Below, piece by piece: positions 2,441 to 20,989 of a DNA stretch of 25,810 bases. The notes beneath the pieces were generated by a model. It made no database searches, was not told the DNA's origin, and was given only the letters and a program-made list of their open reading frames with translations. The translations under genes and the position numbers were made by a program. Location: contig JBCDCD010000001.1 of NCBI GenBank assembly GCA_039182445.1, forward strand, positions 1-25,810. Direction: 5' to 3'. Position 1 is the first letter of the stretch; each line of letters begins with the position of its first letter. This DNA comes from Pseudomonadota bacterium (GTDB lineage Bacteria; Pseudomonadota; Alphaproteobacteria; Micavibrionales; Micavibrionaceae).

Positions 2441-3469
2441 TTAAACGCTGACAGGCGCCCACAGGACATCATTTATATCCTCGGCGCCTGTTGCAAGCAT
2501 GATCAATCGATCAACCCCTAAAGCAATACCTCCGCTTGGCGGCATCCCTACTCTGAGCGCCTCAATAAACTCTTCATCAAGTGGATAACGCTCGCCATAA
2601 AGCCGTTCTTTTTCATCCATCTCAATGTGATAGCGCCGTAACTGTTCATCAGCATCCGTCAGCTCTGAATAAGCATTGGCGAGCTCTATGCCGCAAATAT
2701 AAAGCTCAAAACGTTCGGCAAAGCGCGGATCATCTGTCTTTGGCTTTGATAGAGACGCCATCGAAATCGGGTACTCACATAGAAATGTTGGCCTCTCTTT
2801 GCCTAAGTTGGGCTCAATCTTTTCATCCATCACACGGAAAAAGAGATCATCCCACCCATCATCTTGTGCTGTATGGAGTCCGAGCTTACTTACCTCTTCT
2901 CGAAACCCTTCCTTATCATCTAAATAAGCTTCAAGATCGATGTCGGCATAACGCTTAAAAGATTCTACAACCGTTAATCGCTCCCATTCAGCAAAAAGAT
3001 CGCAAGAAAGCTCTTTATATCGAAAATGTTTAATATCAGCGGCCTTTGCGCACTCTCGTAACAAAGCAACACAATCGTCCATAATATCGTTGTAGTCTGC
3101 TTGTGTGCGATACCATTCAATCATCGTGAATTCGGGTACGTGACGTTTTGAGCCCTCTGCATTTCGGAAGACATGGCATATTTGGTAAATCTTTGAACAT
3201 CCGGCCACCGTCAGCTTTTTCATATCGAATTCAGGACTAGTGTGCAGATAAGGTTTTGAACGTGTTTTTAAATCAACGCCCTTTAATTCTGTCTGAAAAG
3301 CATGAATATGTGTGTCCATGACAGGACAAACTTGCAAGATTGGTGTTTCGACCTCATCAAAGTCCTGAGCGTCAAAAAAACGGCGTATCGCCTTAATAAT
3401 CGCCCCTCGCACCTTTAAATTGGTCTTTTTTTGAGAAAATTGCTCTGGATGCCACCAGTTTGCTTGCAT
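2441..3469 (-). CDS. epmA: EF-P lysine aminoacylase EpmA (GenX/PoxA)
   Basis: Class II LysRS catalytic-core-only protein: EVETP, YLHTSPEF.MKKL, FRNAE....H.PEFTM.EWY, ERFELY..G.ELANAYSEL, GIALGVDRL. Confidence 0.95.
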   Translation of the reverse strand: MQANWWHPEQFSQKKTNLKVRGAIIKAIRRFFDAQDFDEVETPILQVCPVMDTHIHAFQTELKGVDLKTRSKPYLHTSPEFDMKKLTVAGCSKIYQICHVFRNAEGSKRHVPEFTMIEWYRTQADYNDIMDDCVALLRECAKAADIKHFRYKELSCDLFAEWERLTVVESFKRYADIDLEAYLDDKEGFREEVSKLGLHTAQDDGWDDLFFRVMDEKIEPNLGKERPTFLCEYPISMASLSKPKTDDPRFAERFELYICGIELANAYSELTDADEQLRRYHIEMDEKERLYGERYPLDEEFIEALRVGMPPSGGIALGVDRLIMLATGAEDINDVLWAPVSV

Positions 3470-3561
3470 TTTATAGAATCCTTCGGTAAAAGGTCTCCAG
3501 AATTACTAAAGACCCGCTTAAAAGCGTTTTAATAGAGCAGGCCTAAAAAAGGAATAGGAAA

Positions 3562-3792
3562 ATGAAAGCAGATACGCATCCTGATTACCATGAAATCACA
3601 GTTGTGATGACAGATGGCACAGAATACAAAACGAAATCAACATACGGTAAGCCTGGTGATGTGCTTAAGCTTGATGTTGACCCGCTAACACACCCTGCAT
3701 GGCAAGGTGGTTCCGGTAAAGTGATTGAGAAAGGACAGCTCGACAAGTTTGAGAGCAAGTACGGTTCTTTCCTTTCAGGAGATACCCAGTAA
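3562..3792 (+). CDS. rpmE: 50S ribosomal protein L31 (Cys-free type)
   Basis: MK..THPDYH, KTKST, LDVDP..HPAW.GG, KFESKY. AGGAA RBS upstream. Confidence 0.95.
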   Translation: MKADTHPDYHEITVVMTDGTEYKTKSTYGKPGDVLKLDVDPLTHPAWQGGSGKVIEKGQLDKFESKYGSFLSGDTQ

Positions 3793-3823
3793 CAGATTTT
3801 TCGGAGATGAGCCGATTAAAGAG

Positions 3824-3849
3824 AAACCGCCTTTTAAGGCGGTTTTTTT
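3824..3849 (+). terminator. Rho-independent terminator of rpmE, probably bidirectional
   Basis: AAACCGCC-TTTTAA-GGCGGTTT followed by a T run, with an A-rich left flank. It lies between convergent ORFs. Confidence 0.85.
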
Positions 3850-4156
3850 ATGATGTTAAATCAAAGGTTAAGAAACGTTGTCCCTTAACTGAAATTTGAC
3901 CTGTGCAAACCTGATTGTCATCCAACATAGCTATTCTTTGTAAATTAAAGCGATCTCCTTGATGAGTGCTTATTTTGACTTTAACTGGAAAACTCCCTGA
4001 ATCAAAGTTTTCGTCAACCTTATCTTGGATTTCTCTGGCGGTCAGATCTTTTGCTCTAAAATCTAAGAGGCCTGCAGGATTTTCAACTGAAACCCTCCAA
4101 TCCTTGCCCATAAAGACAATTCTAAATGTTCGCTCTGCTCTTACCCAAAAGTCCAT
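3848..4156 (-). CDS. Hypothetical protein (102 aa)
   Basis: ATG-started ORF filling the gap between valS and the rpmE terminator, with its stop in the terminator T run. No recognisable motif. Confidence 0.5.
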   Translation of the reverse strand: MDFWVRAERTFRIVFMGKDWRVSVENPAGLLDFRAKDLTAREIQDKVDENFDSGSFPVKVKISTHQGDRFNLQRIAMLDDNQVCTGQISVKGQRFLTFDLTS

Positions 4157-4196
4157 TATTGTGTATTAATAGATTTTTAATATTATGTCAATATTT

Positions 4197-6842
4197 CTAA
4201 GCGGCGTTAAGTTGTTCTAAAGCGGTTTGAAGTTTGTTTTTCTTCTCCTCATCATTGGCAACAATAGCGCGTTTTTCTTCAATCACCTCTTCTGGCGCAT
4301 TGTCGACAAACTTCTTGTTATCAAGCTGTTGAGAGATTTTCTTAATGTTATTATCGAGCTTATCAATCTCTTTTTTCAATCTGGCGCGTTCCTGATCAAG
4401 ATCAATAATATCCGCAATCGGCAAAATAAGCGTAATGGGTTCAACAATCGTTTGAATAGAGCCTTTAGGCGCCTCTTCAACATGCTCAATACCATTCACG
4501 CGCGCCATGGCTTTAATCATCGGTTCAAAGCGTTCTAAGCCTGATTGGCTCATCTCACAGGCATCTTTCACCATTAGATCAATCTGCGCTTTAGCCGGTA
4601 CGTTCATATCGGCGCGAACAGAACGGATTTCAGAGATAATGCTCATGAGCCAGCTTATCTGCTTATCGGCGCAATCATCTTTTAGCGCAGCATCATATGT
4701 TTGCCACTCGGAACCAAGGAGCAAGTCGCCCTCTTCTCTTTTTGCAATCGAAGCATAGAGCTCTTCGGTAATATAAGGCATAAACGGGTTGAGCAGACGC
4801 AATATTTGCTCCAAAACCCAGCCTGTTGTGCCGCGAACCTCTGCCTTTACAGCCTCATCATCGCCATTCAGAAGTGGTTTGGTGAATTCAAGGTACCAGT
4901 CACAAAATGTACCCCAAATAAATTGGTAAAGCGCGCTTGCCGATTCATTGAAACGATAGCTCTCTAGCCCTTTATCAATAGCTGTCTGACAATCAAGAAC
5001 ACTGCCGATAATCCATTTATTGAGCGTATGCTGCACTTTTGATGGATCAAAATCCGCTTTCGGAAGCGCGTCGTTCATTTCGCAGTAACGCGTTGCATTC
5101 CAAAGCTTGGTCGCAAAGTTACGATAACCTGCGACACGATCTTCAGAGAGTTTTACATCACGTCCTTGCGCGGCCATTGCCGTCAACGTAAAGCGAAGCG
5201 CATCAGCGCCATATTTGTCACAAAGCTCAAGCGGGCCGATGACGTTACCTTTGGATTTGGACATTTTCTGCCCCTTACCATCACGAACAAGCGCGTGAAT
5301 ATAGACTGTCTTAAACGGCACCTCACCCATGAAGTGAATGCCCATCATCATCATTCGCGCGACCCAGAAGAAGATAATATCAAAGCCAGTAATCAGAACG
5401 TTACCAGGATAGTATTTATCCAGAGCTGGCGTTTCATCAGGCCAGCCTAAGGTTGAAAATGGCCATAAAGCAGAACTAAACCATGTATCCAAAACGTCTT
5501 CATCACGTGTGAGCTTCTTATCTGCACCGGCTTTTTCTTGTGCCTCTTCTTCGCTAGAAGCCACATAGACATTACCGTCTTCATCATACCAAGCTGGGAT
5601 TTGATGCCCCCACCAGAGCTGGCGAGAAATACACCAAGGTTGAATATTTTCCATCCAATGAAAGTACGTATTTTCCCATTGTTTAGGGACAAATTCAGTT
5701 TTTCCTGTTTTAACCGCTTCAAGAGCAGGCTGTGCCATTGTCTTGGCATCAACATACCACTGATCTGTTAAGTATGGCTCAATTATAACGCTTGAGCGAT
5801 CACCGTAAGGTACTTGATGTTTGTGATCTTCGACATCGATGAGGAAATCCCTCTCATCAAGGTCTTTGATAATCTTCTTACGTGCTTCAAAACGATCAAG
5901 CCCCACATAATCCTCAGGGCAGTTTTCGTTCATTGAGCCGTCAGGATTCATCAAATTGATCAGTTGAATGTCTTTATCTTCATGACGTTTTGCAACGTCG
6001 AAGTCGTTATAATCATGTGCCGCAGTGATCTTAACGGCTCCTGAGCCAAATTCACTATCAACATATTCATCGGCGATAATTGGAATGATACGATCCGCAA
6101 TGGGAACAACAGCAAATTTTCCTACAAGATTTTTGTATTTTTCATCATCAGGATGAACGGCAATCGCGCCATCGGCTAGAATTGTTTCTGGGCGCGTTGT
6201 CGCAATACGAATAGAGCCTGAACCATCCTCTAAAGGATAATCCACGTGATACAGCTTGCCTTTGATTTCTTTATATTCCACTTCCAGATCAGAAATCGCT
6301 GTCTGGAATTTTGGATCCCAATTCACAAGACGCTTGTCGCGGTAAATCAGACCTTGCTCATAGAGCTCAACAAAAACTTTCAACACCGCCTTAGAAAGAC
6401 CTTCATCCATTGTGAAGCGTTCACGCGACCAGTCTGGCGTACAGCCTAAGCGCTTTTGTTGGCCAACAATCGTGCCGCCGGATTCTTCTTTCCAATTCCA
6501 AACAGTCTTAATGAAGTCTTCGCGCCCCATATCACGGCGATCTTTGCCTTCTTCGGCCAAGTTACGCTCAACAACCATTTGTGTTGCAATACCGGCATGG
6601 TCCAAGCCTGGCTGCCAGAGTGTATCTTTGCCGTTCATGCGGTTCCAACGCACTAAAATATCATGGAGTGTACAGTTCAGCGCGTGCCCCATATGAAGAG
6701 AGCCTGTTACATTCGGAGGCGGCATGACGACAGCATAAGGATCGTCCTTACTCTCAGGATTACATTCAAAATGTCCTGATTTTTCCCACTGCTGGTAATG
6801 AGATTCTTCAATATCTGCTGGATTAAAAGTCTTGTCGAGCAT
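4197..6842 (-). CDS. valS: Valine--tRNA ligase
   Basis: PPPNVTGSLHMGHA (HIGH motif), WQPGLDHAGIATQ, WCISRQLWWGH, DVLDTWFSS, KMSKS, C-terminal coiled coil. 881 aa. Confidence 0.98.
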   Translation of the reverse strand: MLDKTFNPADIEESHYQQWEKSGHFECNPESKDDPYAVVMPPPNVTGSLHMGHALNCTLHDILVRWNRMNGKDTLWQPGLDHAGIATQMVVERNLAEEGKDRRDMGREDFIKTVWNWKEESGGTIVGQQKRLGCTPDWSRERFTMDEGLSKAVLKVFVELYEQGLIYRDKRLVNWDPKFQTAISDLEVEYKEIKGKLYHVDYPLEDGSGSIRIATTRPETILADGAIAVHPDDEKYKNLVGKFAVVPIADRIIPIIADEYVDSEFGSGAVKITAAHDYNDFDVAKRHEDKDIQLINLMNPDGSMNENCPEDYVGLDRFEARKKIIKDLDERDFLIDVEDHKHQVPYGDRSSVIIEPYLTDQWYVDAKTMAQPALEAVKTGKTEFVPKQWENTYFHWMENIQPWCISRQLWWGHQIPAWYDEDGNVYVASSEEEAQEKAGADKKLTRDEDVLDTWFSSALWPFSTLGWPDETPALDKYYPGNVLITGFDIIFFWVARMMMMGIHFMGEVPFKTVYIHALVRDGKGQKMSKSKGNVIGPLELCDKYGADALRFTLTAMAAQGRDVKLSEDRVAGYRNFATKLWNATRYCEMNDALPKADFDPSKVQHTLNKWIIGSVLDCQTAIDKGLESYRFNESASALYQFIWGTFCDWYLEFTKPLLNGDDEAVKAEVRGTTGWVLEQILRLLNPFMPYITEELYASIAKREEGDLLLGSEWQTYDAALKDDCADKQISWLMSIISEIRSVRADMNVPAKAQIDLMVKDACEMSQSGLERFEPMIKAMARVNGIEHVEEAPKGSIQTIVEPITLILPIADIIDLDQERARLKKEIDKLDNNIKKISQQLDNKKFVDNAPEEVIEEKRAIVANDEEKKNKLQTALEQLNAA

Positions 6843-9357: not shown

Positions 9358-10952
<1,595 letters not shown>

Positions 10953-10962
<10 letters not shown>

Positions 10963-11294
10963 GCACCACCTCCAAATTTGAGTTGATAGAGATGGATTTG
11001 TTTGTTTCGCATCAGCTTATTCAGAACGCATCTTGACGGTCTGGCTTTGTAATTTTCACAAAGCTCACTGATAAAGACGGCAATCTTCTCATCTTGCGCT
11101 TTTACAAGCTTGATAAAATCATTGCGCGTACGGAAGTCACCAGCACGATAAACATAGCTTTGCAAGATTTCTAAGTCGTGATCTTTGCAAATATGTTCTA
11201 TTCTTTCTTGCTCTAGGGCGAGGACTGGTGCTTCGGGAGTTTCTAAATCCGGTAAATATAAAATCACAATGGCTTTACGTTGCCTTACGTCCAT
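10953..11294 (-). CDS. Catalytically inactive resolvase-domain-like protein (113 aa)
   Basis: Aligns nearly colinearly by eye with the N-terminal domain of the adjacent recombinase, but Arg/Ser are replaced by Tyr/Pro and DRLxR is absent. Overlaps the recombinase start by 10 nt. Confidence 0.7.
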
Positions 11295-11304
11295 TCACTA
11301 ACTC

Positions 11305-11347
11305 ACGGTTTCAAGTTAGGTTTCGCCGCGCGAAGCAACGAAACCGT
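11305..11347 (-). promoter_or_regulatory. Hairpin directly upstream of the 11294 start codon
   Basis: Perfect 8 bp inverted repeat ACGGTTTC (11305-11312) / GAAACCGT (11340-11347) with inner TTCG/CGAA pairing. Confidence 0.55.
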
Positions 11348-11385
11348 ATTCTTTGACCACCGATGAAAAATGAAAGTAATTCCCC

Positions 11386-11480
11386 TGGTGATCGGGGAGT
11401 TAGTAAAACCGGCTAAAGTCGGCTACATACACCTTTAGGCCGAAGCCCTGGACATACGTGTATGTCTCCCCGACCATAGA
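11386..11480 (-). ncRNA. C4/CI-type phage antisense RNA-like cloverleaf
   Basis: 11 bp closing stem TGGTCGGGGAG/CTCCCCGATCA, inner hairpins GACATAC/GTATGTC and GGC-TTCG-GCC, plus segments complementary to upstream and downstream sites on the same strand. Confidence 0.65.
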
Positions 11481-11517
11481 GGTTCGAGGAGTATCTACTT
11501 TGTGGCCGATACATGCC

Positions 11518-11544
11518 ACTTTAGCCTAGGAGTTACTACACTCC
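11518..11544 (-). promoter_or_regulatory. Upstream antisense target (a1-b1/seqA-like)
   Basis: Hairpin GGAG-TGTAGTAA-CTCC followed by GGCTAAAGT, complementary to TTACTA and ACTTTAGCC in the cloverleaf. Confidence 0.6.
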
Positions 11545-11571
11545 AGAAAAGCCTTAACTTTTCATACTTTC

Positions 11572-11599
11572 ATTCTAGCAACTGGACGACTCCAGTCAA
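11572..11599 (-). promoter_or_regulatory. Sigma70-like promoter with internal palindrome
   Basis: TTGACT, 16 bp spacer, TAGAAT with an extended -10 TGn. ACTGGA-N4-TCCAGT dyad at 11581-11596. Confidence 0.65.
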
Positions 11600-11601
11600 T
11601 G

Positions 11602-11823
11602 TCATTGTGCCTTTTGCTGTTCGTGTACCTCCATTGCTACTTTCGTAAATCCTATTAAATTTCTTGCGGCCTCATGTGCTTCAACATCACTAATGTTGCC
11701 GTCATATCGTTTTTTAACCATTTCAACGATTTCATTATACGTCTCGTCTTGGCTTTTTTTACTTGGCGGGGCTTCAAGTGCCTGCCTATATGTCATAGCT
11801 GTTTCTGTCATTTTCGATCTCAC
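11602..11823 (-). CDS. Small hypothetical protein (73 aa)
   Basis: ORF co-oriented with the integrase cassette, with a helical C-terminal half (ISDVEAHEAARNLIGF). Exact start uncertain. Confidence 0.6.
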   Translation of the reverse strand: MRSKMTETAMTYRQALEAPPSKKSQDETYNEIVEMVKKRYDGNISDVEAHEAARNLIGFTKVAMEVHEQQKAQ

Positions 11824-11918
11824 TTTTTGCGCTGATATTCTGGTAAAGGTGTCAATGATTCAAAAAACAGTGACACTAACGAAATCACGCGGGTTTCCGC
11901 CCCGCATTATTATTTTTG

Positions 11919-13208
11919 CTAGGAAGTACCTTGAGGTATTCGTTCCAATAGCAGGTAGACATCTTCTATTGCCTGTACTTCGTTATAAGGCAGTGTCAGC
12001 GTGTTTGTGGCGAGATCATATGCCGAAGGCTTCCATGCCACTCTAAAGCCATCAGGGATCGTTACACTGTACGGAATAGATATTTTTTCACCGTTGGGTA
12101 CGATTTGTATCCGCTGGTTTCCGTAGTCAGCAACGAGGTATTTGTCAGGTGCAATCGCTATCACATCCCAAATATCTTGAAACGCTCCTATACGATGAAG
12201 CCCTTGTTTGCGGTCATCCCATTCAGAATGCCCGACATGCCATTTGTAATCACGATCATCAGCCCCGATTGTCACCAGCATTTTCGGGCCATTACAAACT
12301 GTCACCAATTCAGTACCATCAAGTGATAGCGTCATACCGCGTGGATATATTGCATCAGTATCAAAGCCCGTGGCCTTGCTATAGGTTTCGATATATTCCC
12401 ACGTTTCAGGATTCCACACGCCCATGTGATGTTTGTTATATGAGCTAACGTAGAGCCTGCCATCTGCGAGTATTCGCGCTCGGGATGGATGCGATGTTTC
12501 ATGCTTCCAACCATTGCCGTTGGTTTTATACATTACGCGGCTTTTAATCAGTGATCCGGTAAGGCCGCTGAACTCTGATACGTGACCGTGGCCTGTGCCT
12601 TCTTCGCCTGTATCGGGATCATAACCATAGCCGTTATAGCCCGTGATCAAGACATTACCATTTGGCAAAAGCTCAATATCCTGCGGATTATAAAGCTGGT
12701 TATCCTTCAAATGGCCTGCGCTTGTGCTGCCGTATTGCCAGAGCAATTCACCGGTTGAAAGCCTAAAGGCGCGAACCATATGCCGCCATTCCATGCAGAT
12801 GAATATGCGATCATTTTCAACATCCACTGCAAAACTGCGGACGTAATTATAGCTATCTGCCTCATTGCGCGGATCTTTATGATGTCCTATCCAGTAGCCT
12901 AGAAATGAAAAATTGCTATCAAACCGTGCGATTGGAAGGCTGTAAGAGCCTATCCAAAACTCACCATTCACAATACGGATGCACGAAGGCCGGTTTATCA
13001 GGCCATCACGATAGCCTGAAATAGCCGTGCCGTAGCCTTTAAGAAGTTCGTTAATTGGTGTGACAGGCATCGCTTTAACCCAGCTTTTGTGGTCGTCAAA
13101 GGATGCTTCTTGTATCAGGTAATTCAGCATTGGTTCACCGAGATTAAGAGCTTTCTTAAGCTGCGAATTCTCTTTGATGCTGTTTAAAAATGCTTGTACT
13201 GCGCTCAT
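11919..13208 (-). CDS. NHL-repeat-like beta-propeller protein (429 aa)
   Basis: Repeated blade signatures: RSFAVDVENDRIFI, LYNPQDIELLPNGNVLIT, HPSRARILADGRLYVS, YPRGMTLSLDGTELVT, WDVIAIAPDKYLVADYGNQRIQI. No signal peptide seen. Confidence 0.75.
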   Translation of the reverse strand: MSAVQAFLNSIKENSQLKKALNLGEPMLNYLIQEASFDDHKSWVKAMPVTPINELLKGYGTAISGYRDGLINRPSCIRIVNGEFWIGSYSLPIARFDSNFSFLGYWIGHHKDPRNEADSYNYVRSFAVDVENDRIFICMEWRHMVRAFRLSTGELLWQYGSTSAGHLKDNQLYNPQDIELLPNGNVLITGYNGYGYDPDTGEEGTGHGHVSEFSGLTGSLIKSRVMYKTNGNGWKHETSHPSRARILADGRLYVSSYNKHHMGVWNPETWEYIETYSKATGFDTDAIYPRGMTLSLDGTELVTVCNGPKMLVTIGADDRDYKWHVGHSEWDDRKQGLHRIGAFQDIWDVIAIAPDKYLVADYGNQRIQIVPNGEKISIPYSVTIPDGFRVAWKPSAYDLATNTLTLPYNEVQAIEDVYLLLERIPQGTS

Positions 13209-17908: not shown

Positions 17909-18296
17909 TAGTTGTTCCTTTGCGTTCAATGGCGCACTCGGCCTCGTAAGCCTTCGCTGCTAATTCTTGGAGTTTGTCGTGATAGGCTGTGACAATGACC
18001 TCAACGAGGGTCAGCACTTCATCTTTGGTGTAATTATCAAGGCCGCGTGTCATGCCAATGGAGGCGACATATTCACCCATTGGTGCAAGCGCGGCTTGAA
18101 TGGCTGCTTTTTCATTTTTGGTAGGATCAATCACGCTCATATCTCCGTTTTGTTTTTTCAAATCGCTGTAAATGCGTTGGCATTGCATCGAACAGAATTT
18201 GCGGTACGAGCTGCGGCCTATCGGTGTGTTGATCCGAAATGGTGGTTGGATGTAACCAAAGCCGCGATGATCTCTTAGGCACACTGCGCATTTCAT
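17895..18296 (-). CDS. DUF6511-like zinc-finger prophage protein
   Basis: CAVC...RGFG and FCSMQCQ, then IDPT..E.AA, GEY...IG. ATGA overlap with the helicase stop. Confidence 0.72.
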   Translation of the reverse strand: MKCAVCLRDHRGFGYIQPPFRINTPIGRSSYRKFCSMQCQRIYSDLKKQNGDMSVIDPTKNEKAAIQAALAPMGEYVASIGMTRGLDNYTKDEVLTLVEVIVTAYHDKLQELAAKAYEAECAIERKGTTNAGF

Positions 18297-20989
18297 GCTG
18301 CCTCCTGCGCCGCAAAGACGGTTTTATGAATGTCTTTTTTATTAAATTTGAAGGTCATCAATGCCGAAGCGTGATAGCGCGTTAGGCCATAATCATGCTT
18401 GTATTCAGTCGGTAGATATTTGCGCTGCGCATTGGTGGCTGGTTGCGATATCCAGCGTTTGGATTTATGTGCGGTATCTGCGCTTTCGTGCTGGTTAATC
18501 CAATCATTGGCAGCAGCTAGGCAAATCAAACGCTCGCCCAACGCCAATAGATGTGTGACCAGATGTTTGCCGCCGCCAATGGCATACCAGCGCCCATCAA
18601 GGAAAAAGACACCGCCCCATGCGTTAAAGCCTTGTGCAACTAATGCTGCGCCATCATTAAAAATATCGCACCAAAGGAAGGATGATTTTTCAAAGATATC
18701 AATTTCAGTCATGGCAAAATCGCCAAAGTCGATATCTTCCTGATCATTAACGCCGGTATTGATTAACCATTCATATCCGCATAGCGAACATTCCCGCGCC
18801 GAAGCTGGAACAATAGCACCACATTCAGGGCAATCCTTTTTCGGTGCATCGCGTTTCGTTTCTTGAACGTCAAGGCTAACGTCTTGTTCCAGCGATCCGT
18901 GTAGAATGGTTGAAGTGCCAAAGTCCAAAACGATACAGTCCGTTTTGATAACGCCTGGGTATTCAGCCGGATCTACTGTACGCAATCCACGGCCAACCAT
19001 TTGTGTCATGGTTGATCTGAAAGACGATGGCCTTAACAAAATCACGCAAGATGTTGGTGTATAATCATAACCTTCCGTTAGAACGGCGACATTCACCACC
19101 ACCTGCGTATCACCATCTTCATATGATTTAAGCGCGTCTCTGCGTTCTTGCTTGCTAAGTTCACCATGAATGAGTGTGGCTTTAACGCCGCCATCAAGAA
19201 ATGCCTCATAAACAGATCTGGCGTGATTGACGGTAGAACAAAAGACAATGGTTTTACGATCACCGGCTTTTTCTTTCCAATGCTTGATCACGGAAGCTGT
19301 TACCGGCAGCTTGTTCATGATCTTATCGACTTCGCCCATATCAAAATCGCTGGCGACTTTCTTCACATTGCGGAGCTGGTCTTGAACGCCAACATCAACA
19401 ACAAAGGTGCGCGGCGGCACCAAATGACCGGCTTTGATAAGTTCTTCGAGCGTGATTTGATCGGAGATATTTGAAAATACTGGCCTTAAGCCTTTGCGAT
19501 CCCCGCGCATCGGTGTAGCTGTAACGCCAAAGATTTTGCATTCTTCATTTCGTGCGAGAACGGATTTAATGATTTTCTGATAACTGCCTGCTATTGCATG
19601 ATGGGCTTCATCAATCACCAGCATGTCTAGCATTGGCATACGCGCGAGATTTTCAGGCCGTGCTAAAGTGGGAACCATCGCAAAGGTGGTGCGCCCATCC
19701 CATGACTTCTGCGCAGCATCATAAATTGATGTGCTAATAGTTGGGTTTACACGACTGAATTTAATAGAGTTTTGTGATGTAAGTTCGTCACGATGGGCTA
19801 AAACACATGCGCGTTTATCGTTGGCTTTAAGGGAATCGCCTACAACGGCAGACAGCATAATGGTTTTGCCGGAATTATGCGTGACGGTGAAATCACCTAA
19901 GAGATAAAGATTGTCACCATTAACGGTGAACCCAAAATATTCACCATATCCTGCTTCATGAACGGTAAAGCCGGTGCGCAACACATTCTTTTTTTGTTTG
20001 CGTGTGCCTGGTATGCGCCGGGCCACACGTAATGGAATTTCTGAGAAATCGCCGCAGATAAAAAACCGGTAATAAGTTTTGCCTTTAACGATCTTTGGTT
20101 TTGGTAATGCCTGAAATCCAAGGCTTCGCGCAATAAAGGCAACATCATCTGCCAGATCCTTTGACGCGGTAGAAAATTCAATATTATTATTATGTAGATA
20201 TCCATCTGTATCGAGCAAACCCGCTAAAATTGCCGCCCGTGCTTTATTTGAAGCGATTTTATAAATATGAGGAATATGCTTATCGGCTGCACCTCTGCCA
20301 TACACATCGATAGAACGTAAGATATCGGATAGCGGGTTTCTTACCGCACCATCTTTCACAAAGTGATAAGTGTTTGCTTCATTGCCTGGGATTTGTTCAA
20401 TGCGTAACCGCAGGCCGATACGTTCAGCTAGATCATGACAGGCTTCGATAATCTCCGGATCAGCCGTAGTAAGATTGGGTGGGCTGGTTTTTAAACCACC
20501 GTCTCCCAGCAATATTCCCAAGAAATATGGGTCGAGGGGTAAACGCTTTCCTCCACCAAAATCGATCCTTGCCCGATAAAGCTTATGTTGATGCTTGAAT
20601 GTAGGACTTTGCGATAAGTAATTTTCAACACTAATATTTTCGATGGTGTCTTGGTCTTTTTCGTCATCTTCAAGTTTCCGTGTGGTGCGGACAAGCGAGA
20701 GAATATGACCGCGATTAACAATGAATGGCTCGCCCTTGATAGGTTTGATTTCAAACATGTCATCAACGCCGTGATGAAGTTCTAAAACCTTTCTAGGCTT
20801 GCTATCTTTACCCATAAGCAAATCGCCCACGCGCACATCTTCAACGTTCTTGATCGTGCCATCGAACATAAGAATGGGTGTGCCGGCAGCGTGGCATCCG
20901 GTAGGTGCAACGCCCAAGGCATTTCCATGTTCATCTAAGGCTTCAAGACTGCGCTCAACGAAGATTTTTTGACGTGGGCGTAATAACAT
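18293..20989 (-). CDS. SF2 DEAD/DEAH-box helicase interrupted by an intein (557 aa after splicing)
   Basis: Walker A APTG|SGKT split by the intein. DEAHH, TATP.RGD, LTEGYD, QMVGRGLR, C-terminal CPEC...CSLC zinc finger. Confidence 0.93.
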   Translation of the reverse strand: MLLRPRQKIFVERSLEALDEHGNALGVAPTGCHAAGTPILMFDGTIKNVEDVRVGDLLMGKDSKPRKVLELHHGVDDMFEIKPIKGEPFIVNRGHILSLVRTTRKLEDDEKDQDTIENISVENYLSQSPTFKHQHKLYRARIDFGGGKRLPLDPYFLGILLGDGGLKTSPPNLTTADPEIIEACHDLAERIGLRLRIEQIPGNEANTYHFVKDGAVRNPLSDILRSIDVYGRGAADKHIPHIYKIASNKARAAILAGLLDTDGYLHNNNIEFSTASKDLADDVAFIARSLGFQALPKPKIVKGKTYYRFFICGDFSEIPLRVARRIPGTRKQKKNVLRTGFTVHEAGYGEYFGFTVNGDNLYLLGDFTVTHNSGKTIMLSAVVGDSLKANDKRACVLAHRDELTSQNSIKFSRVNPTISTSIYDAAQKSWDGRTTFAMVPTLARPENLARMPMLDMLVIDEAHHAIAGSYQKIIKSVLARNEECKIFGVTATPMRGDRKGLRPVFSNISDQITLEELIKAGHLVPPRTFVVDVGVQDQLRNVKKVASDFDMGEVDKIMNKLPVTASVIKHWKEKAGDRKTIVFCSTVNHARSVYEAFLDGGVKATLIHGELSKQERRDALKSYEDGDTQVVVNVAVLTEGYDYTPTSCVILLRPSSFRSTMTQMVGRGLRTVDPAEYPGVIKTDCIVLDFGTSTILHGSLEQDVSLDVQETKRDAPKKDCPECGAIVPASARECSLCGYEWLINTGVNDQEDIDFGDFAMTEIDIFEKSSFLWCDIFNDGAALVAQGFNAWGGVFFLDGRWYAIGGGKHLVTHLLALGERLICLAAANDWINQHESADTAHKSKRWISQPATNAQRKYLPTEYKHDYGLTRYHASALMTFKFNKKDIHKTVFAAQEAA
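19874..20896 (-). mobile_element. Intein with LAGLIDADG homing endonuclease (341 aa, Cys32-Asn372)
   Basis: Block A CHAAGTPILMFDG, block B VNRGH, LAGLIDADG motifs LGILLGDG and LAGLLDTDG, terminal THN, +1 Ser. Confidence 0.95.

Follow-up and report, generated by a model that had tools for sequence, protein, structure and literature searches.

The window considered here, that is, the whole stretch of 25,810 nt that was analysed, comes from a marine MAG whose closest named relatives, as judged by a comparison of ValS, are Micavibrio MAGs. It holds an integrated replicative element of ~14.6 kb, which spans positions 9391 to about 24000 and is integrated at a tRNA-Asn gene. The cargo of this element consists of replication genes only, namely those coding for a primase-helicase, an intein-bearing SF2 helicase, an AAA_24 protein and a RuvC-like resolvase, and the LysR and MarR genes come after the element. 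The SF2 helicase gene (18293-20989) encodes Hint and LAGLIDADG homing-endonuclease domains, which constitute the intein. A search for att direct repeats of at least 16 nt found none, as one would expect with a serine integrase. At the integrase end of the element sits a C4-like RNA, followed by orf113, a gene for a 113-aa protein, and by the gene of a large serine integrase (int).

The integrase and its paralog

The int gene (9391..10962, minus strand) encodes a protein of 523 aa with Resolvase and Recombinase domains (phrog_95). Its last 13 codons (9391-9432) are antisense to the 3' half of the tRNA-Asn gene (9358-9432), and it looks as if the crossover site falls inside the 3' end of int, such that integration would rewrite the C-terminus of the integrase. 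The homologous integrases of loci L021, L022, L028, L031 and L073 end at 494 to 644 aa, and their flanking genes differ.

The preceding gene, orf113 (10953..11294, minus strand), encodes what is most likely an inactive paralog of the N-terminal catalytic domain of the integrase, without the DNA-binding part. This assignment follows from a profile match to the N-domains of the cognate integrases over 97 columns (hhalign 96%, E 2e-9), together with the loss of most of the catalytic residues: Arg18 of the integrase corresponds to Tyr13 of orf113, Ser20 to Pro15, and the DRLQR motif to ELCEN, with the position of Pro15 occupied by Ser in most orf113 homologs. It agrees with the 'dead resolvase domain' of a preliminary description of this locus that was made from the sequence. 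The profile-profile comparison is the sole positive identity test for orf113. Searches against Pfam and PHROGs gave no match, BLASTP against the integrase N-domain was not significant, and a Foldseek search of the PDB with an AlphaFold model (pLDDT 70) returned generic alpha/beta folds only, none of them at E <=0.001. Ten close homologs share 74-80% identity with it, a search for related loci in a set of genome contigs found none, and a profile search of 1.84 billion representatives recovered only 5 clusters, none a recognised resolvase, and added just a few distant homologs. A complex prediction for orf113 with the integrase N-domain scored 0.00, which is evidence neither way.

The ATG at 11294 is the first possible start of orf113, since in-frame TAG and TGA codons lie ahead of it. 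The orf113 stop falls 10 nt inside int, and a GGAGG stands 7 nt before the int ATG; this arrangement makes translational coupling possible and allows for independent initiation of int too. Given that int has a good Shine-Dalgarno (SD) sequence of its own, the coupling may be loose.

Promoter, leader and RNA core

The promoter, the leader sites, the RNA core and the downstream site described below all lie on the minus strand. The promoter (11572..11599) combines a -35 element TTGACT (11599-11594), a 16-nt spacer and a TG-extended -10 element TAGAAT (11577-11572). It is the sole promoter-like site on both strands within 10900-12000, where the preliminary description had already placed a minus-strand promoter, and it is kept in the syntenic loci. 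A small ORF of 73 aa (11602-11823) has its stop 3 nt ahead of the -35 element. This ORF is syntenic in all loci, with homologs of 64-91 aa and without a family match, and could encode a regulator of the RNA promoter.

The leader contains a hairpin (11529..11544) with a1, TAGTAA (11538-11533), in its loop, followed by b1, GGCTAAAGT (11518..11526), which is a perfect complement of the segment b' of the RNA. Further along, an anti-P1 segment, CTCCTCGAACC (11481..11491), offers an alternative pairing with the 5' strand of the closing stem of the RNA; a complement of at least 7 nt is found at this place in 61 of 65 family loci, compared with 21% of shuffles.

The core is a 90-nt RNA of the C4/sRNA-Xcc1 type (11386..11475). 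Its closing stem, P1, is formed by 11475-11466 with 11399-11390. The first arm consists of the 8-bp stem P2 (11465-11458 with 11432-11425) with a UUCG hairpin (11448-11437) inside it, and the second is the 5-bp hairpin P3, whose loop displays b', ACTTTAGCC (11419-11411). Then follows a', TTACTAACTC (11406-11397), which includes a 7-nt single-stranded junction, and the core ends with an ACCA tail (11389-11386). When the isolated 96 nt (11479-11384) are folded, the MFE structure coincides with the centroid (-37.1 kcal/mol, z -3.1), giving an 11-bp closing stem, an 8-bp stem around a conserved internal loop and the cUUCGg hairpin, and the 5-bp b' hairpin. The RNA had earlier been called a cloverleaf; the closing stem and the cUUCGg hairpin of that description stand, and the word itself is loose for a closing stem with two arms.

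The core also bears the marks of an RNase P substrate, with a GGUC... start at 11475 and ACCA at 11389-11386. Among 52 relatives, the CC of the tail is invariant and the next A is present in at least 90%. The GG start and the RCCA tail are kept in nearly all members of the family, and this conservation speaks for an RNA that is processed and free. In the long arm, the internal loop (GUAUGUCCA, 11457-11449; UAAAG, 11436-11432) is better conserved than any other part of the family and gave 27-nt matches at 89-96% identity in many genomes; it may serve as a binding motif for a protein or an RNase.

A spacer of ~90 nt with two hairpins (11355-11393 and 11319-11345) separates the RNA from its putative downstream site, a2, and is peculiar to the integrase-linked lineage; the spacer of L073 has hairpins of different sequence at matching places. 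In the hairpin at 11355-11393, the region of the ACCA tail (GAUCACC) pairs with GGUGGUC, whereas that at 11319..11345 is a strong 11-bp hairpin. A terminator-like hairpin, UCCCC/GGGGA with a U-rich tract (11363..11398), competes with the 3' strand of P1. It is kept in close syntenic loci and forms in the MFE structure of the full leader, where it is weak and arises from the freed CCCC. The site a2, GAGTTAGTGAA (11294..11304), is complementary to a' over 11 bp (one G-U) and spans the region from an SD-like GAG to the A of the ATG; as first named, it was GAGTTAGTGA (11304-11295), adjoining the ATG at 11294. The motif coordinates given in the preliminary description, i.e., those of TAGTAA, b1, b', a', the shorter form of a2 and the ATG at 11294, are all exact.

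Family membership and spread

Rfam covariance models had been proposed as a means of verifying the RNA, and none of them reaches its gathering score in the region; at gathering thresholds, a scan of the window yields two tRNAs only. The best match is to C4 (RF01695), which aligns over its full length (model 1-87) to 11481-11384 on the minus strand with 25.4 bits and an E of 0.014, against a gathering score of 45. The window RNA scores 20 bits on sRNA-Xcc1 (RF02221), for which gathering stands at 53, and neither c4-a1b1 (RF03163) nor isrK has a match in 11150-11700 at E up to 10. The C4 model, run over the whole of the RNA's own genome, gives nothing at E up to 1, and in phage records, BLAST with the region found no more than a 26-nt match.

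BLAST against 320 genomes of the same order, on the other hand, matched the RNA core in 59 of them. Relatives score higher than the window RNA on sRNA-Xcc1, reaching 43.7 bits over the full model in L007, still below the gathering score of 53. A covariance model (R1) built from 52 distant relatives, with the window and its syntenic loci left out, recovers the window RNA at full length with 75.2 bits and an E of about 1e-14. Within a sample of 150 alphaproteobacterial genomes, one per family, R1 matches 28 (27/149 without the unpublished genome G359), often in several copies per genome.

The structure covaries across the family. In 71 distinct sequences, 94% of the cells are paired, as against 74% in shuffles and 34-44% with slid partners, and double-sided changes occur in 23 of the 27 pairs; the alignment used here had been fitted to the model, a step that works in favour of the structure. 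RNAalifold applied to a MAFFT alignment, which is independent of the model, yields the same helices. Covariation, which the preliminary description had named as a further means of verification, is thus found in the structure and also between a1 and a' and between b1 and b'. The original assignment to the C4/CI type is upheld by the R1 score and by this covariation; it falls short in that the Rfam gathering scores are missed and in that the full P1 layout is absent, there being no b2. Judged by its sequence, the RNA is a genuine C4/sRNA-Xcc1-type antisense RNA module.

Second copies of C4-like RNAs occur in tandem or nearby in several loci, namely L054 (1479-1575 and 1873-1969), L046, L049 and L028 (4442-4532, minus strand), and some of them are much more diverged (33-38 bits). 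In L002, L011 and L013, the first ORF after the RNA encodes a hydrophobic peptide of 31-40 aa that ends in G-W-(L/I)-I-W-G. Such peptides are candidates for membrane-active, possibly toxic products that the RNA would gate, much as in type I toxin-antitoxin pairs or with kil genes.

Antisense pairing in the window and across the family

In the window, a' and a2 form 11 consecutive pairs, one of them G-U, with an energy of -13.4 kcal/mol; the preliminary description had counted 10/10 (one G-U) for this second target, and the run as determined here ends at the ATG at 11294. Shuffled targets give -6.6 +/- 2.0 kcal/mol with a', and 0.45% of them reach -13.4 (p 0.0045). Runs of at least 11 pairs occur in 0.1% of shuffled RBS windows, and across the contig, only two minus-strand sites offer a' a run of at least 10 pairs. 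The upstream pairings have energies of -15.6 kcal/mol (b'-b1) and -11.8 kcal/mol (a'-a1). The segment b' has nothing in the region of the second target (-6.2 kcal/mol), and a b2 site was rejected, as the contig contains roughly the chance number of 8-nt matches to b', two of them within int. Cofolding of the processed core with an mRNA fragment produced no intermolecular pairs, a result which is uninformative because the junction pairing is pseudoknot-like for the algorithm.

We then compared, for 65 distinct loci, the b' loop and the a' junction with the flanks of their own locus and with those of all other loci. Upstream, b' finds a cognate run of 7.8 nt versus a non-cognate run of 4.9 nt, and at most 5% of the non-cognates are as good in 52/65 loci; the corresponding runs for a' are 6.8 and 5.0 nt (22/65 loci by run length). 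Downstream, the cognate and non-cognate runs are 4.9 and 5.0 nt for b' (1/65 by run length) and 5.8 and 5.3 nt for a' (2/65 by run length). Thus, co-variation of a1 and b1 with their partners runs through the whole family, and b2 is nonexistent. The segment b' is hypervariable, yet its partner b1 is present in most loci.

With regard to a2, the family falls into a larger subfamily (subfamily B), with P1 of the form GGCCGGGnGG, an intrinsic terminator at the end and no a2, and that of the window, in which P1 is GGUCGGGGAG/CUCCCCGA and the RBS of the next ORF is complementary to a'. RBS sites that match their own a' are, for example, GGAGTTAGAAA in L002, GGAGTAAGA in L047 and GGAGTTGA in L038. 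The cognate a'-RBS run in the window's subfamily is 6.7 nt versus 5.7 nt, with a permutation p of ~2e-4, which is a rough value because related sequences are non-independent, and the same holds without the integrase group. Further, the end of a2 in this subfamily always lies within a few nt of the start codon. Some of the a2 match is no more than the SD facing the anti-SD-like CUCC within a'. On these comparisons, a2 appears as a feature that is real but softer than a1 and b1.

The integrase-linked lineage

The linkage of the RNA to a recombinase operon, to which it had been proposed to be wired, is borne out by the syntenic loci, all 14 of which (about ten distinct sequences) keep the order RNA-orf113-integrase. 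The recovered loci read DUF6362, NHL propeller, small ORF, a gap of ~310 nt, orf113 and large serine recombinase, and the gap always holds the RNA. The same order is seen in L073 and L074, in which orf113 is 36% identical and two recombinases stand in tandem; those of L073 are large serine recombinases at 3345-4829 and 4854-6348, after the orf113 homolog. Identity among the integrases of the lineage has fallen to 41-71%, whereas the RNA core and orf113 have remained alike. No integrase homologs were found in the 1.5-kb flanks of the other fetched loci of the RNA family; hence, among the loci fetched so far, only this lineage of the RNA stands before a recombinase. A C4-like RNA with an orf113 homolog (103 aa) and without a recombinase occurs at 1005-1490 of L075, where the neighbours are Fer2, transaldolase and PriA; this locus could be a remnant or a sign that the RNA-orf113 pair can stand alone.

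The specificity segments change in concert within this lineage. At least 7 different versions of b1/b' are present among 11 syntenic loci, all of them complementary, and a1 and a' switch together between UAGUAA/UUACUA, UAGAAA/UUUCUA and UUGUAA/UUACAA, the last in L073. The pairing between a' and a2 comprises 11 pairs in the window and in L022 and 7 pairs in L021, L023, L025 and L028; in L031 and L032, as read from the sequences, 8 of 9 pairs form, and a compensatory change from U-A to A-U distinguishes L031 from the window. It is weak in L026 and L027 and, in one tally, in L031 too. In L073 and L075, complementarity of a' to the RBS is kept in other registers.

Comparison with known antisense RNA systems

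RNAs of the C4/CI type gate antirepressor, cell-division-inhibitor and replication genes, and we know of no described member that gates an integrase. A literature search, which was not exhaustive, returned no paper with a C4 antisense RNA among its top matches. The immI region of P1/P7, with the order a1 b1 - c4 - a2 b2 - icd - ant, resembles the present locus in several ways: one promoter serves the RNA and its target; the closing stem has a GG start and an RCCA end, as an RNase P substrate; b' and a', both variable, have their complements upstream in b1 and a1; and the downstream site lies on the RBS of the first, small member of a pair of overlapping genes (PMC5320573). A GGW start and processing by RNase P have been described for C4 (PMC5320573). 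The window RNA differs from C4 in its score of 25.4 bits on the Rfam model, below the gathering 45, in the long first arm with a conserved internal loop, which is sRNA-Xcc1-like, in the lack of b2, in the use of a' rather than b' on the RBS, and in the spacer of ~90 nt with two hairpins before a2; moreover, its predicted targets are a dead recombinase domain and a serine integrase, whereas those of C4 are icd and ant.

The arm layout is that of sRNA-Xcc1, with which the RNA shares the closing stem, the long arm with an inner hairpin, the short hairpin and the junction with CACC; it differs from it in scoring only 20 bits in the window and at most 43.7 bits in relatives (gathering 53). sRNA-Xcc1 is described as an integron-borne trans-acting sRNA, and to our knowledge no a1/b1/a2 logic has been described for it.

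The nearest formal parallel is the layout of P4 CI, with seqA upstream and seqC downstream of the RNA (PMC4825925). Like the RNA described here, for which processing is a prediction, CI is processed from a leader and complementary to one site upstream and one downstream (PMC4825925), and it is the immunity factor of a replicative satellite-like element with a primase-helicase, a role that the window RNA may share. The two also differ. P4 has just one seqB, which serves both of its targets, and relies on premature termination ahead of the replication genes. Here, two segments pair upstream and only one pairs downstream, with an RBS, and it is the integrase unit that is predicted to be controlled.

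Another likeness is to the isrK-orf45-anrP locus of Gifsy-1 (IsrK being an a1b1-type leader; STnc1160), where pairing of the leader with downstream sequence puts the read-through mRNA into a translationally silent fold, and the regulated gene is coupled to a small ORF ahead of it; experiments have demonstrated this fold for the isrK-orf45 mRNA (PMC4825925). The proteins of that locus, AnrP and AntQ, are different ones, and the present leader is without an IsrK-type terminator. The genes that appear to be controlled here, orf113 and the serine integrase, differ from those of P1 immI, P4 and N15, i.e., icd/ant, kil/replication genes and antirepressors. The kind of RNA is known; what is new is its apparent wiring to an integrase operon that starts with a dead paralog of the catalytic domain.

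Proposed mechanism and alternatives

The explanation that we favour, with slightly more confidence than doubt, is that the locus forms a C4-type module whose a' segment covers the SD and the start codon of orf113, such that orf113 and then, via coupling or polarity, int would be lowered. A single strong promoter would give rise to a transcript containing the leader (a1, b1, anti-P1), the folded RNA, the two hairpins, orf113 and int. From this, the core would probably be excised as in C4, since its GG start, acceptor-like stem of 10-11 bp and RCCA are marks of an RNase P substrate. Pairing of a' with a2 over the SD region and the start codon of orf113 would then block translation, and the gene overlap and polarity would lead to less integrase. 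The integrase and its dead-domain paralog would accordingly be made mainly when the RNA is scarce, i.e., just after entry or upon its titration by a1/b1 leaders. As a2 covers the RBS of a two-gene unit ending in the integrase, the RNA switch probably limits the timing of the integrase.

This proposal draws on the sequence features, the fold, the covarying family, the covariation of a1 and b1, the complementarity of a2 and the gene linkage, and the operon on the single promoter and the stop/start overlap with GGAGG. Against it stand the missed Rfam gathering scores, the lack of b2, the decay of a2 in some syntenic loci, the SD of int itself and the existence of a larger, terminator-ended subfamily without a2. 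Processing, repression, premature termination, pairing in trans as opposed to pairing on the same transcript, and any effect on integration or excision are what we infer.

Many of the same elements would also suit a cis-acting leader switch of the IsrK/orf45 type, in which three pairings within the unprocessed read-through transcript (a' to a2, b' to b1, and the 5' strand of P1 to anti-P1) give a translationally silent mRNA, and the fold is shifted by leader RNA or C4-like RNA in free form. Repression would still run via a'-a2, with no trans-acting immunity RNA. The MFE structure of the 281-nt leader (z -5.1) forms exactly these pairings together with the UCCCC/GGGGA hairpin, though MFE folds of long RNAs are weak evidence; the conservation of anti-P1 in 61/65 loci points in the same direction, and inactive and active folds that are opened by a short leader RNA have an experimental precedent in the Gifsy-1 isrK locus (PMC4825925). 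However, the retention of the RNase P marks (GG start, RCCA) in nearly all members favours a processed free RNA, and we hold the cis switch to be unlikely, albeit well worth keeping in mind. It is, moreover, compatible with the C4-type model, in that action in trans and action in cis both predict repression via a'-a2.

Were the RNA real and its partners only its own a1 and b1, for self-recognition, autoregulation or control of termination, the match to the orf113 RBS would be a remnant of ancestral SD/anti-SD complementarity. Several observations are in line with this: b'-b1 is the strongest and most variable pairing, b2 is lacking, a' against downstream sequence is barely above non-cognate family-wide, subfamily B is without a2, and a2 has decayed in L026, L027 and L031. 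They have to be set against the cognate specificity of a2 within the window's subfamily and its end near the start codon, the 11 consecutive a'-a2 pairs in the window, and the fact that three diverged orf113 lineages (the window group, L073 and L075) keep some a'-RBS complementarity in different registers, which together make a purely leader-directed RNA quite improbable in our view. As for chance complementarity in a structured intergenic region with no RNA gene, the want of an Rfam gathering match would be what it predicts, but the R1 match at E ~1e-14, the strong covariation, the cognate-specific complementarity and the conservation of the region in 14 syntenic loci all speak against it. 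We give it next to no credence, and regard it as effectively refuted by the R1 score, the cognate tests and the covariation.

Implications

The C4-type module may be part of something more elaborate, namely an RNA self-recognition timer for recombination, in which the fast-evolving b1/b' and a1/a' pairs form an element-specific barcode, the processed RNA silences the orf113-int unit of its own kind, whether resident or incoming, and the dead paralog, co-regulated with the integrase, serves as its inhibitor or as a directionality factor. We advance this tentatively and with more doubt than belief. If true, RNA immunity would directly decide the integration or excision of the element.

More generally, a large alphaproteobacterial RNA family that is missed by the Rfam models gains a clear functional context. 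If the pairing works as predicted, the synthesis of an integrase would be set by an RNA with fast-evolving specificity segments, which would provide a simple means of confining integration to a short period after entry, and of doing so in an element-specific manner. Finally, an inactive copy of the recombinase catalytic domain would fall under this control as well, and it may be a kind of serine integrase regulator, acting at the protein level, that has not yet been described.
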